A stretch of 64,000 bases of DNA from an uncultured bacterium. GTDB lineage: Bacteria; Babelota; Babeliae; Babelales; Vermiphilaceae. Position numbers: made by a program. Position 1 is the first letter of the stretch. Every line of letters begins with the position of its first letter. Positions 42,001-48,000 of the stretch are shown here, one piece after another. The DNA is taken from the NCBI GenBank assembly GCA_963695335.1, contig OY968764.1:1120001-1184000 (forward strand), in the 5' to 3' direction.

Positions 42001-45000
42001 ACTGCGTCAAATCGCTCTGGAAAACAATTTTGCAATTACCGTCTCATCGTATGGAAAAGTTAAAACCGTTGCGCAAATGGCATGCTTAGCCTTTATAATC
42101 GCTAATCCATACCACGCACATCTTTTTACTGCTTTATATTGGAATGGAACTGAACTGCTCTTATTAATTATAGGCACTGCCTTATCAATCGGCAGCGCCT
42201 ACAATTATTTCTCTGTTTTTATGGAACAATACAATAATAATTAGTTCACGATAAATACCAAAAGAACTGTGTGACGCAATCAATTACATCTCGCGGAATT
42301 TTATATAAAAAATGCTCAGATTGCTTTTCATATACATCATGATGCACGCCATACAACTGCACTATTTTATCCGTTACGCCACATGCACGCATCAACAACA
42401 GTTTATACCAATTAAACTCAAAATCTGTTTCTATAACCAATTCTATTCGCTTATATGTATCTTCTTTTTGCTGTTTTAAATATTCAAAAATTGATGCTAC
42501 AGCAACTGATACTGCTTTTCCTTTGGGAAAGGCTACTGGCATATCAACCGTTCCCAACGTAGGCAATGCTATACTTTTTTCATCTTTCGCATCATATAGA
42601 TGAATTTTATTAAGAACAATTTCATAACATTGAGCCAAATCTTTAAATAGTTGTTGCATGCCCTTATCACCAGACATTTGAAATGTTGTGTACAGCTTTC
42701 TTTTGTTATCTACATAATAATAACTATGTATTGCTTTTTTATTTTGATTATCCTTTTTAAAAAAGCTCAACCTACTTTTTATTTTATCAACATGTAAGTT
42801 TCCTGTTTTGCTTTTGCTAACATAATAAAATAACCGATCATCTTTGCCCTTCATAGCATATGGTTCTTGAATAGCAACAACCTGACCTACCACACGCTCA
42901 CTCACAATCTTCTCTGGATCAAAAATCTCATCAGCAGACTTTTTATACGAATAAATAGAATGTCCTCTATAAAAATAATTACCAACCTCTTGTTGATACG
43001 GATTAAATGTTCTTTTGCTTAATACTGTTTGTTGATTTTCCCCCACAATCATAACACTCACGTTCAATATCGGGTAAACATCACACAAATAACCTTTAAT
43101 AAGATTAATTTTGGTACCATGCGCTGTAATGCTCCACTTATTTTCTTTTTCCATTGCATGACTAGATATCATAAAAATAGATGCTAGAATGAATATATTT
43201 TTTGTCATAAGTTCTGCAACCTTGGTAATGTTATATTAATTTTGCAATATAACTGATCAACTCATACGGCAATAATGCAAAAATATTCTCAGAATCTTTT
43301 TGTGCAAAATAGAGAAGTAACACATTTTCTTTACCTCTCCATTGCATCAACAACTCTTTGTAATGATTAAAATCAGCCATCTCTTCCATAAACAATTCAA
43401 CATTATCATACGCCTTTGAATTATTTTTTATACATTCAAGAACAGCATTTACTGCAATTGAAATAACATCTTCTTTAAACATACGCGCATGCTCATAGTG
43501 AGAATCTGCACCCAACATTGGCAAAGCTATATTCTTAATCTCTTTTTCTTTTAATAATTCTATGCCTTTATTCAATACAGTGTTATAACAACGCAATAAA
43601 TCCTTACGACTCTCTTGAATCGCTAACTCTTTTGTATAACATTCACTATCTGCATACCAATATTGTGCAGCCCCACTAGAAAGGTTAAAAACTCGAGGCT
43701 CTGTAACAACTAAAAATTTTATATCTTCTCGAATTGGGAAATACCAATCATGTAATAGAAGTTTTTGATAATGAATACTATCTTTTTTTGGCCTAAACGT
43801 AACTGTTTGCTGCTCACAACAATATCCTAGCAGATTGCTTGCCATCGGAACCACACCAAGCTCTTCTTGTTTATATTGCCCCACGCAAATAACAACATCT
43901 TCTTTTTTTCTATCATCAGCATAATATTCCAATATATCCGCTTGATGCAGATTAATTTTGGTACCATATGCTGTAATACTCCACTTATTTTCTTTTTCCA
44001 TCGCATGCACAAATACAGTAAAAATGAATGCAACGATAAATATCTTTTTTTTCATAAAAACTCTGCAACCTTGGTAATGTTATATTAAATTTGCTATATA
44101 ACTGATCAACTCACACGGCAATGACGAAAGTAAATGTTCAGAATCTTTGTGCGCAAAATAAAAAAGTAACACATTTTTTTCTGTATTTATCCATTGTATC
44201 AACAACTTTTTATACAAATTAAAATCTGCATCTTCTTCCATGAACAACTGAATTGTATCATAAAAATTTGGTTTATTTTTTATATATGTAAGAATGGCAT
44301 CTACAGCAATTGGAACTGCTTTGTCTTCTGGAATCCCCCAAAGATCATACTCAGAATCCGCGCCTAACATTGGCAAAGCTATATTTTTACTCTTTTTTTC
44401 TTTCAACAATATTGTGGCGTGATCCAAAGCAGCATTATAACAAAATAATAAATCGTCACAGCTTTTGCGTATTGTCAATTTACCTATATGGAAGTTTTTA
44501 TCAAAACCCAAACTTTCAACACTTCTAAAGAAAGAAAATGTACATAGATGCGGCTCTGTAACACATAAAAAACAGATACCTTCTCGAGGGTGCAGTTGCC
44601 AACCTTCTGAATAAGCTCTTTGATAATTAAGGCTACCTTTTTTTGGTGTAAATCGAACTGTCCTCTGCACATAACAATCTCCTACTGAATTACTTTTACA
44701 TGGAATCGCGCCAAGCTCTTCTTGTTTATATTTCCCCACGCAAACAACAACATCTTCTTTTTTTCTATCATCAGCATAATATTCCAATATATCCGCTTGA
44801 TGCAGATTAATTTTGGTACCATATGCTGTAATACTCCACTTATTTTCTTTTTCCATCGCATGCACAAATACAGTAAAAATGAATGCAACGATAAATATCT
44901 TTTTTTTCATAAAAACTCTGCAAACCTTGGTAATGTTATATTAAATTTGCTATATAACTGATCAACTCACACGGCAATGACGAAAGTAAATGTTCAGAAT

Positions 45001-48000
45001 CTTTTTGCGCAAAATAAAGAAGCAACACATTTTCTTTACCCCTCCATTGCATCAACAACTCTTTGTACAAATCAAATCCACAATTTTGTTCTACAAATAA
45101 CTCTATACAATTATACGCTCCTATATTGTTTTTTATAAATTCAAGAATGGATGCTGCCGCAATAGGTGCTGCTTTTTCTCGTGGAAAACCAACCTGATCA
45201 TGTGATACTAAATTAAGATCAGCACTTAATGCTAACAATCCTATACTTTTTTCCTCTTTATTTCCTAATCTTTCCAGTCCCTCTTTTAAAACAATTTCAT
45301 AACAGAAACTCAAATCTTTAGATGCCTCCTGAAGTGCCATATCTGCATAAAATTCCACTCTCTGAATACAATCTTCCTCAACCAATTTTCCTTTTTTTTC
45401 ATAACAATATCTTATTGTCTCGTCACTATATTGACCATTTATATATACAGAACAATGAGCAACCCATGGTTCTGCTATACTAAAAACATTACTCACAGTA
45501 CTGCTTAAGCTAAATAATTGTAATCCATCATCATCACGTGGCATGGGTGCTAAAAGTATATCATCCTCTCCCTTATCGTTTCGTCTCGATATGCTACAAA
45601 TGTTACGTGATCCTGCACTCTTATTATATCCCACAACCATTACATCAACATTCACTTGTCTTTTATCATATGAATCTTTCGTGAGATTAATTTTTGTACC
45701 ATATACTGTAATACTCCATTGATTTTCTTTTTCCATTGCATGCATCTGCATTGCAAAACATATCATCAACATCACAATGTTCTTTTTCATCGCAAATCCT
45801 TTATATAAAAAAAGTGAGTTGCATGCCTTTTGAATACAAGGCACACAACCCACATAGTATACTGGAATAACAATTATTTTTCAGCAGCACTTTTTTTCTA
45901 AAAGTTCTTTGTATAATGCAAATTCAGACTGTTTTTCTACAAATAACTCTATACGATCATACGCATTCGGACTGTTTTTAATAAACTCCAAAATAGTAGT
46001 TATTGTACGTTGTGCAGCTTTACTCTCCAAATTATTACTGTCTGGAAAATGCGATTTATAAGACCCAACAGTTAAAGCTGGTAATGCTATGCTTCTTGCC
46101 ACCTTTTCATTTTTTTCTAGTATCGCTTTTGTAAAAACATCTGTATAACACAAATTTAAGTCTTTTAATGCTTCTCCAACCACTTCATCAACAGAATGAG
46201 AACCATCTCTGTTAAAAAGCTTTGCGTGATACAACTTATATCCAGGTGTATATCTTTCATAAAATACATCAAGACTAGTGCTTACACTAACGTAAGGCGC
46301 TTTAACTTCTACCAGTTTGTCTTTATTGATAAGCAAAAAACGATTACGTGCCAACTGATTAGGATCTGTTTCTTTTGGTTTTTCATATTTTTTCACAACG
46401 ATAACATCTGCCTTTTTGCCATCATTACTATCGAGTATATTCCCTTGATACAAATTAATTTTTGTATTACCAACGGTTATGCTCCAATTCTTTTCATTCT
46501 CCATGCCTTGTATACACGCTGCAGATAACATTATCGCAACCACCACCAATTTCTTCATCCATCATCCTTTGAGGTTAAAGTGAAAAACAGGGGGCTTAAA
46601 AGCCCCCGCTTCGCTTTTTAAGATATATTCTACTGATTTCGGATGTATTCTCGTATGCGATCTTCGTTTACCTGACCACTTGTTTCTGCAAAATACCCAT
46701 CTGACCAAAAACTTTTACCCCACAAAAACTCTTTTAATTCTGGAAATTCTTCGCGCACAACTTTACTGGTCATTCCTTTAAACAATTGTACCATCCTGCT
46801 CACGCTTACATCTGGATTCATTTGAACTAACATATGAACATGATCTAATTGAATGTTTAGCTCTTCTATTTTCCATCTTTGCAAATCTGCGCATTCATAC
46901 AATAGATCTTTTATTCTTTCTGCTATCTCTCCTTTTAATACTCTCTTTCTATATTTTGGAATCCATACTAAATGATACATAAGTCTGTGCTTTGTTTGAG
47001 ATCCACACCAATATTTACCCATGTTTTTTAGTATGCCTAAAGAGCCGGCTCTTCGCAATTACTATAACTGCATTGCTCCATCGCCTCCATTTTGACTCGC
47101 ATTCATCCCTGGCTTTGAAAAGCCAGGGTTTTCTGCTCAATTAAATAAACAATATACGCACTTTTTATACAATACATTGTAAGTATTGGCAAGCAATCTT
47201 TCGAATTTATATAAAAAAATGATACTCTTTAAAAAAGAACAATCGTATTCGTTTTCAATAATCAAAAAATTAATCTTTTTGAGGATATAATGACTTTAAC
47301 ACATGATGGAATTGATGAAACTATAAAACAAAAAATTATAGCTATAATTTCAGCACTTGTGCCTGATGCAACAATTTATTTATTTGGATCACGCTCACGT
47401 GGCACTCAATCAAAATGGTCGGATATCGATATAGCACTTGATTCCGGACATCCTATCTCACGATTTGTTCTTGGTGAACTTATGAGCGTTTTTGAAGCAA
47501 CTGACATATTGTACAAAATCCAAGTTGTTGATATTAATTCTGTTAATGAAGCAATGAAAACATCAATTTTAAGAGATCGCGTATTATGGAAAAAATAAGA
47601 GATCGTTACGACATTACCATACAAACATTATCAACATTAAAAGAAGTCTTAGATGAATATGATGCAGGCTTTCCAGAAAAATACATACTTATCTTTCATG
47701 ATTCAATAATTCAACGATTTGAATACTCAATAGATACTTTTTGGAAATTTTTAAAACTCTATCTTCAAGAACAGCTCAAAATAGCTCTGGAATCAAATGC
47801 TCCACGTGCAATCATCAGAGAAGCGGCTAATGCCAACCTTATATCAGAAGAAGAAGCCTCTATTTTACTGAAGTGTATTACAAGCCGTAATGAAACATCT
47901 CATACTTATAATGAATTTTTAGCAGAACAAGTAGTTAAGAGTGTCCCTGAATATTATAAAATTATGCACAAAATTATGAAAAACATACCCATCTCACAAT

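Follow-up and report, generated by a model that had tools for sequence, protein, structure and literature searches.

MacroD-type macrodomains, such as human MacroD2, O. iheyensis MacroD, the M. oralis macrodomain and E. coli YmdB, are recognized by the catalytic loop Nx6GG[VLI], as defined in an excerpt of PMC10951314 that also gives an adenine-binding Asp. Legionella MavL and Larg1 (DUF4804 class) are secreted macro folds of an intracellular bacterium of protists in which the MacroD motifs are absent; these hydrolases are active, have ART effectors as partners and are not tandemly expanded. Toxoplasma MAF1a/b are secreted, tandemly expanded effectors of variable copy number from a eukaryotic parasite, where they target mitochondria. 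To our knowledge, they have no F-box-like tail. MAF1B binds proteins, and C-terminal residues set MAF1 function, according to part of PMC7999873. Finally, in the poxvirus and Orientia ANK/F-box (PRANC) proteins, notably cowpox CP77, a variable binding domain is followed, at the very C-terminus, by a truncated motif resembling an F-box; an excerpt of PMC4353913 describes CP77 as binding Skp1 through an F-box cut down to its first helix.

Here, we compare these systems with a tandem array in a 64,000-nucleotide window of an uncultured member of the Babelota. This phylum parasitizes protists and has hundreds of secreted proteins to which no function is assigned. Motif and column counts are based on a wider family set of 84 non-redundant rows. 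The family is like the MacroD types in its fold and in the homology of its C-terminal half, and differs from them in lacking both signatures (84/84), in an acidic residue at the position of MacroD2 G188, in two inserts, in a secretion leader and in a C-terminal tail. It is tandemly expanded, in contrast to MavL and Larg1, whose two motifs it lacks. It matches MAF1 in structure (Z 9.5, rmsd 3.5, 164 aligned) and is presumed to be of independent origin. Paralogs are expanded both here and in the ANK/F-box proteins, but the receptor here is a macro fold instead of ankyrin repeats, the tail has no Pfam PRANC or F-box score, and SKP1 docking is predicted. We tentatively read the family as exported pseudo-macrodomain scaffolds with variable loops, most of them ending in a one-helix F-box as a possible dock for host SKP1.

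The array, its surroundings and its family

The five tandem genes of the preliminary description were recovered as five minus-strand ORFs at 42246-46558, as seen in Table 1. Genes m2 and m3 are identical over the first 165 nt of m2, and m3 and m4 over the last 66 coding nt of m3. Gene-conversion tracts are present among the family genes, and whole-gene dN/dS was 0.26-0.66 in five pairs. Positive selection on the inserts was not shown: their dN is above that of the core, yet dN/dS was below 1 in 5/5 pairs. Tandem duplication and gene conversion would exchange leaders and tails while the middle of the protein diverges.

Table 1. Features of the array region, in window coordinates
Feature	Position	Strand	Description
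pgsA-like gene (family presumed)	41663..42244	+	Conserved array flank
m1 (g01115)	42246..43208	-	320 aa; leader and Met-Glu, pseudo-macrodomain, F-box-like tail
m1 C-terminal tail	42246..42410	-	
m2	43231..44055	-	274 aa; architecture as m1
m2 C-terminal tail	43231..43368	-	
m3	44080..44910	-	276 aa; architecture as m1
m3 C-terminal tail	44080..44217	-	
m4	44936..45790	-	284 aa counted from ATG; architecture as m1
m4 C-terminal tail	44936..45073	-	Helix, short helix, Leu-Pro, terminal helix
m5 (g01119)	45881..46558	-	225 aa; leader and pseudo-macrodomain, no tail; first gene of the array
IS200 element	46579..47149	-	571 bp; tnpA 46630-47058; its end lies some 20 bp upstream of m5
MNT-HEPN toxin-antitoxin-type pair	47290..48002	+	No counterpart found in congener loci
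plsY-like gene (label presumed)	48017..48598	+	Second conserved flank; an ATP-dependent DNA ligase comes next

The IS200 beside m5 is one of three near-identical copies. No tnpA, MNT or HEPN gene was found in 13 array-bearing congener loci (some overlapping), and congeners carry 1-5 family copies at the same sites. The IS200 next to the array is a recent insertion, outside the conserved locus. The part in the expansion that the preliminary description implied for it is not supported, since congener arrays have no tnpA nearby and one IS copy destroys a family member; IS200-driven expansion was therefore rejected. Rfam returned only tRNAs across the window, and no RNA holder was listed.

Searched with a profile of the five array ORFs, the 1.37-Mb genome yielded 10 ORFs (E<=5.4e-7), and the canonical macro gene came next at E 1.5e-4. 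Two of the ORFs, at contig positions 573874-574425 and 574949-575353, correspond to residues 174-325 and 1-114 of an intact neighbour and are separated by a 571-bp IS200. Because g00580 and g00582 are the halves of this one IS200-split gene, there are nine genes, one of them broken, and not the ten originally counted. The suspicion that the short members were fragments was correct for these two; g00756 is full-length and tail-less with its own leader, and was placed nearest the canonical macros in a quick, midpoint-rooted tree in which 33 of 85 inner branches are open. Only 12 relatives had been reported, whereas a single query gave 36 matches among 981 candidates, all at E<=1.3e-14 and four of them from this genome. 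The paralogous expansion holds, and the family is confined to one Babeliales genus among the 261 phylum genomes. No fused long forms were seen in 7794 candidates of 591-2000 aa, which is weak evidence. As for the claim that the family is invisible to databases, none of the five array ORFs reached a Pfam cut-off, and Pfam Macro matched 3 of 37 aligned members. The NCBIfam part of the claim fell: PRK04143 (protein-ADP-ribose hydrolase) matched 35 of the 37 at E<=0.01, with 2.1e-10 as the best value. The score of the first member was 16 bits, where the cut-off is 272.

MacroD descent and the replaced ADP-ribose pocket

The macrodomain fold was confirmed. An AF2 model of m4 (pLDDT 79.5) has the macro fold over about residues 21-253, and Foldseek gave 87 matches at E<=1e-3 with macrodomains at the top. 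VIA scores were Z 12.7-15.6 across MacroD-type macrodomains, the highest being to O. iheyensis MacroD (Z 15.6, rmsd 2.5, 156 aligned). The family profile matched MacroD2 at E 1.5e-13, with homology detectable in the C-terminal half. A viral fold library returned ordinary macrodomains only, and the ESM Atlas gave a full member only a weak Macro lead (0.77). The family descends from a MacroD-type macrodomain; a Babeliales genus would have duplicated a secreted gene of this type, and the copies would have become pseudo-macrodomains.

The two signature loops have been replaced, as have the residues of the adenine pocket. The Nx6GG[VLI] loop occurs in 0/84 rows and in 3/4 canonical controls. The diphosphate loop G[VIA][YF]G was likewise absent (0/84), as was a relaxed form of it (0/84 versus 4/4 controls). 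The Asp of GDIT and the Phe, which we take to be the adenine-binding and adenine-stacking residues of MacroD, were found in 9/84 and 0/84 rows, compared to 4/4 and 3/4 controls. The pyrophosphate-loop glycine column (MacroD2 G188) holds Asp or Glu in 60/84 rows, and the profile alignment to MacroD2 places an Asp on the Gly of STGIYG with one residue deleted. The substitution G188E is reported, in an excerpt of 10.1101/2021.05.08.443251, to cause a dramatic drop in ADP-ribose affinity. Canonical copies have Ala at this position in 3/4 cases and, therefore, it tolerates some change. Neither the PARG motif GGGx6-8QEE nor the Arg-specific motifs of MavL, Larg1 and DUF4804, [VIL]xGxGxGx[FWY] and WDxx[SA]xPGN[DE], occurred in any of the 84 rows. 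Two variable inserts occupy the former positions of the ligand loops. Usual ADP-ribose binding has probably been lost, and the fold would serve as a scaffold whose inserts bind host proteins.

The leader and the C-terminal tail

A hydrophobic leader followed by M[EQD] was matched by pattern in 73/84 rows. The Met-Glu leader had been presented as a trait of the family, but 145 of 1191 crude ORF calls (~12%) also carry it, compared to 13-32 of 1191 for each of eight control dipeptides, and ankyrin and F-box proteins share it. The earlier prediction of export agrees with this Sec-type leader (a pattern match), and from their sequences the family proteins are likely exported. The genome has two secretins. 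It is fairly likely that Sec export is followed by release into the host cytosol, possibly via type II secretins.

A tail overlooked in the preliminary description ends 7 of the 9 genes of this genome. It was found in 63/84 rows, or 39/60 among rows found otherwise than by a tail search. Since 21/84 rows are tail-less, among them all copies fetched from five congeners, the core must act alone in some way. Of the 63 tails, 54 fit L-x-x-L-P-x-E/D-I-x-x-x-I, which we take as the F-box helix-1 pattern, and the last 16 residues of the m4 tail match this helix. The presumed BC-box pattern of SOCS/VHL boxes, [STP]LxxxCxxx-hydrophobic, was seen in 0/63. HHalign compared the tail profile with 27 Pfam F-boxes of Babelota and gave probability 88 and score 26, whereas none of 60 column shuffles scored above 12.3; the match spans just 17-22 columns, and a family-only profile gave probability 54. 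Any Leu-Pro with an amphipathic helix, including the LRR 'LPxEI', can score in this comparison. In 27 of the 58 tails that were measured, the chain ends 13 residues past the start of Leu-Pro; it stops after the helix 1 motif, and F-box helices 2 and 3 were not found.

The sequence searches below returned no F-box. Pfam F-box and PRANC matched 0/18 tails at E<=10, and none of the tails in this genome matched PRANC (PF09372) at E<=1. When the two tail profiles were searched against PDB sequences, no F-box protein came up. A 45-residue tail model had its best match (Z 5.5) to unrelated helical hairpins; the fold searches returned nothing specific, with no F-box or SOCS-box protein among the matches, and the ESM Atlas gave unnamed clusters. 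The helix preceding the motif is equally well conserved, yet nothing in F-boxes corresponds to it.

The tail is mobile: it also terminates unrelated leader-bearing proteins of other Babeliales, including ankyrin proteins, and two proteins carry it as a tandem pair. Pfam F-boxes exceeded the cut-off in 37/261 phylum genomes, with two matches in this genome, and the Skp1 family had no match in the 261. The tail of most copies is plausibly, if not quite probably, a one-helix F-box docking host SKP1, which would make the paralogs SCF substrate adaptors or SKP1 decoys.

Competing explanations and significance

A possible though doubtful alternative is that exported pseudo-macrodomains bind host proteins or nucleic acids and that the tail is a different kind of module, a signal for targeting, translocation, chaperone binding or dimerisation that many secreted Babeliales proteins share. 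Loss of the MacroD motifs speaks for this as it does for the preferred reading, the tail misses the F-box and PRANC models as well as the PDB F-boxes and begins with a conserved helix foreign to them, and the protein-binding MAF1B is a structural neighbour. Against this, the tail reproduces F-box helix 1 at its strongest positions, and it lies on the C-terminal side of ankyrin repeats, just as the F-box does in ANK-F-box proteins. Such a motif was seen within the last 45 residues of only 4 of 137 non-family Met-Glu proteins, so the tail is not a general export signal.

The original proposal, secreted readers or erasers of ADP-ribosylation, is poorly supported, given the absent signatures and the acidic G188 column, and would need a rebuilt site as in MavL and Larg1. 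The fold and MacroD ancestry favor it. A near-invariant new Glu (81/84) lies after strand 5 beside the distal-ribose site; Glu-Pro is kept in 81-83/84 rows, a Gly near the pocket in 80/84 and the second Asn of NAAN in 29/84, and the new Glu with a kept Asn or His could mark such a site. An excerpt of PMC10951314 also describes MavL as active without the MacroD motifs and the adenine Asp. However, the MavL-type Gly-rich diphosphate loop with an aromatic residue is in 0/84 rows, pocket positions vary freely between paralogs, and a separate canonical macro gene is kept here and in 6/10 congeners, leaving this proposal unlikely. Less likely again are periplasmic or surface proteins with no host-cytosolic target, under ligand-binding or antigen-like diversification. 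The Sec-type leader proves inner-membrane passage only, but the eukaryote-type F-box-like tail and gene-accordion dynamics fit host-directed effectors, the leader is common to ankyrin and F-box proteins, and secretins are present.

Under our preferred reading of exported scaffolds, an ADP-ribose enzyme fold was turned into a diversified effector scaffold inside one genus, and one genome holds the canonical parent together with tail-bearing copies and a tail-less copy that is basal. The tail would be a short module common to ankyrin and orphan secreted proteins of the order. If it binds SKP1, many unannotated proteins would gain a ubiquitin-hijacking role, and the poxvirus/Orientia ANK/F-box strategy would extend to a new receptor fold and phylum. 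It is conceivable, if rather speculative, that a host SCF ubiquitin ligase is hijacked, with the macro fold and its C-terminal one-helix F-box acting as substrate receptor, the Pfam-missed mobile module having been shuffled onto many secreted Babeliales proteins. Pathogen F-box effectors, which use ankyrin and LRR receptors, would then have a third type in the macro fold. If some paralogs recognize ADP-ribosylated targets through a rebuilt pocket, host ADP-ribosylation marks would lead to ubiquitin-dependent destruction.

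A tandem family with a macrodomain fold

The macrodomain fold proposed in the preliminary description was borne out by a model, by structure matches and by a sequence profile. With a 37-sequence alignment, AlphaFold2 modelled m4, one of the five array genes m1-m5, at pLDDT 79.5 and pTM 0.74 (confidence was low for residues 61-65 and 75-91), and Foldseek on this model gave 87 matches at E<=1e-3, with MacroD2 first. VIA placed the model against O. iheyensis MacroD with Z 15.6 and an rmsd of 2.5 over 156 residues. The homology was also seen in sequence, since the family profile matched MacroD2 at E 1.5e-13. 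NCBIfam PRK04143 was matched by 35 of 37 members at E<=0.01.

The five tandem minus-strand ORFs lie where they had been placed. Of the four spacers between them, three have nearly the same 22-25-nt sequence, which gives the array the look of a head-to-tail duplication. A profile of m1-m5 recovered ten ORFs genome-wide at E<=5.4e-7, followed by a canonical macro gene. Ten members had been counted before; there are indeed ten ORFs, but only nine genes, one of them broken, because two ORFs are the halves of one gene split around a 571-bp IS200 (residues 1-114 and 174-325 of the intact neighbour). The member g00756, suspected of being a fragment, is a complete, leader-bearing gene in which the tail alone is missing. 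Genes m2 and m3 share 165 identical 5' bases and m3 and m4 share 66 identical 3' bases, while 40-60% of synonymous sites differ in the m2/m3 interiors, a pattern that indicates gene conversion among the array paralogs. Whole-gene dN/dS was 0.26-0.66 in five pairwise comparisons, none of them clearly >1, and four pairs had a higher dN in the variable inserts than in the core. The family genes are maintained.

The IS200 upstream of the array has a GC-rich hairpin at its array-facing end and may separate the array from its promoter. No tnpA or MNT-HEPN pair was found in 13 congener loci (some overlapping) holding family arrays, which makes both of them recent insertions. We take the flank genes to be pgsA-like and plsY-like; the eight family-bearing congeners have 1-3 copies each, adjoining the same pgsA-like and/or plsY-like flank, and three of the eight also have the second family array. 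Family members undergo loss as well as gain. One congener member has an in-frame stop before its tail. A frame change near 40860-40890 interrupts the secD-like gene, of which a congener copy is intact (517 aa); the interruption is either a sequencing indel or a real lesion.

Coordinates of the array, its neighbours and related features
Feature	Position	Remark
Tandem array m1-m5	window 42246-46558	minus strand
IS200	window 46579-47149	co-oriented with array; ends ~20 bp upstream of its first gene
MNT-HEPN toxin-antitoxin-type pair	window 47290-48002	inserted beside IS200
Presumed secD-like gene	window 39907-41458	
2113-aa ORF	window 55662-62003	signal-like N-terminus
Broken gene, first part	contig 575338-575024	
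Broken gene, second part	contig 574335-573898	
Canonical macro gene	contig 1068786-1069427	E 1.5e-4 to five-member profile
Congener member with in-frame stop	L013:7034-8074	
ORF, F-box-helix-1-like motif after leader	contig 751271-752905	
ORF, F-box-helix-1-like motif after leader	contig 793461-794480	
ORF, F-box-helix-1-like motif after leader	contig 1071272-1072210	
ORF, F-box-helix-1-like motif after leader	contig 1081160-1083281	
ORF, F-box-helix-1-like motif after leader	contig 1260505-1261488	

Ligand pocket, range and origin

Eighty-four family rows were aligned (95 minus 7 near-duplicates, with 4 canonical controls set aside), and motif definitions for the macrodomain hydrolase classes were taken from PMC10951314. 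None of the 84 rows contained Nx6GG[VLI] (3/4 controls), G[VIA][YF]G (a relaxed loop-2 pattern matched 4/4 controls), the PARG motif or either of two Arg-specific motifs. This catalytic-residue check weakens the earlier claim that the proteins read or erase ADP-ribosylation, and the family pockets match no described hydrolase class. The adenine Asp column was kept in 9 rows, the first and second NAAN Asn in 0 and 29, and the stacking Phe in 0. The diphosphate-loop Gly column held D or E in 60 rows and G in 4, and HMMER pairs the family Asp with the Gly in the STGIYG of MacroD2, at the cost of a one-residue deletion. G188E brought a dramatic drop in affinity, which was explained by a charge next to the pyrophosphate (10.1101/2021.05.08.443251). 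Simple pocket loss is countered by Ala at the G188-equivalent column in 3/4 canonical controls, by a near-invariant new Glu (81/84) beside the distal-ribose site and by MavL, in which the active site was rebuilt (PMC10951314). A variable insert has taken the place of the GGGV loop and next helix; 40/84 rows carry an acidic SDDDTY-like motif there. A second variable insert follows Glu-Pro.

With a single member as query, 36 of 981 candidate proteins matched, each of them at E<=1.3e-14. Of the 261 phylum genomes, 40 matched at E<=1e-5, with near-full-length matches (best E<=3e-45) only in the source genome and 8 of 10 congeners; in 30 genomes outside the genus the match was limited to the C-terminal half, and the three of these checked are canonical Macro proteins. 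Hydrophobic leaders also start all four canonical macros examined, and a quick, weakly resolved tree placed g00756 between canonical macros and the remaining family, making a secreted canonical macro the likely parent. Canonical MacroD-type proteins of the phylum (that in the table and those on L010-L012) have signal-like leaders and keep NAAN. As secreted ADP-ribosyl hydrolases they are more plausible candidates than the family.

The C-terminal tail

About 40 residues continue past the macro fold at the C-terminus in seven of nine family genes, with a predicted helix, short helix, Leu-Pro and terminal helix. The tail is present in 63/84 rows, 24 of which came from the tail search (39 of the other 60 have it). 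Its profile matched 18/261 genomes at E<=0.01; carriers beyond the four genomes in which family members have the tail are unrelated and mostly leader-bearing, with the motif near the C-terminus. The three carriers tested are ankyrin proteins, and two proteins have a tandem double tail. The tail is a mobile module.

An F-box helix-1 pattern fits 54 of the 63 family tails, and a BC-box fits none. Against 27 Pfam-defined phylum F-boxes, HHalign gave a broad tail profile probability 88 and score 26 (<=12.3 in 60 shuffles) and a family-only profile probability 54, both aligning helix 1 alone. Sequence searches with Pfam F-box and PRANC, and against the PDB, left the tail unrecognised. Poxviral C-terminal F-boxes are truncated and still bind Skp1 (PMC9414399), and CP77 binds Skp1 via the first F-box helix only, the source of most contacts (PMC4353913). 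The lineage uses the ubiquitin/F-box pathway: canonical F-boxes above the Pfam cut-off occur in 37/261 phylum genomes, with two in the source genome, and B. massiliensis is noted for ubiquitin-system proteins (PMC4378268).

Ten ORFs, for which the table gives five coordinate ranges, have an F-box-helix-1-like motif directly after the leader, helices 2-3 being apparently absent in several, and the density of such motifs in Met-Glu proteins is roughly threefold that in other proteins. Up to 19 secreted orphans end in the tail in one same-family genome (G218; L024, L042), a partly circular count as several are in the profile. Clear SKP1 homologues are encoded on giant-virus-type contigs (L047-L053).

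Export and possible function

The proteins had been called exported effectors because a signal peptide precedes Met-Glu. Export is likely, but Met-Glu is not specific to them: leader plus Met-Glu was found in 145 of 1191 crude ORF calls vs 13-32 for eight control dipeptides and is a genome-wide trait. A leader ending in small residue-Met-Glu, of which a literature search found no published description, may be a lineage-wide mature-N-terminus signal. Signal peptides occur in 44% of CDS of C. destructans (PMC6561590), and the source genome has two secretins, as likewise reported for TM6 genomes (PMC4776705). All cultured members of the phylum infect protists (PMC12172432). We infer delivery into the host cytosol.

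We tentatively favor a model in which the pseudo-macrodomain proteins would be exported, bind host proteins by their variable inserts and, in most copies, recruit or sequester host SKP1 by a putative one-helix F-box. Next in rank, and somewhat doubtful, is the same exported scaffold, its tail serving another function; the helix-1 fit has to be weighed here against the failure of standard searches to recognise the tail. A rebuilt ADP-ribose reader or eraser ranks third and is unlikely, the new Glu and MavL standing on one side and the missing hydrolase motifs on the other. A non-host role comes last and is improbable.

Legionella provides a precedent for secreted macrodomains, Toxoplasma for a tandem effector array (MAF1), and poxviruses and Orientia for C-terminal truncated F-boxes. 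Each ingredient of the favored model thus has a precedent, and the combination appears new. Among matches listed in mostly open-access literature there was no description of the family, the macro-F-box fusion or the tail; a list of expanded families in Additional file 9 of PMC4378268 may be relevant to the family's novelty. With the enzyme claim weakened and the range being one uncultured genus, the tail is the testable feature that keeps the family of interest.
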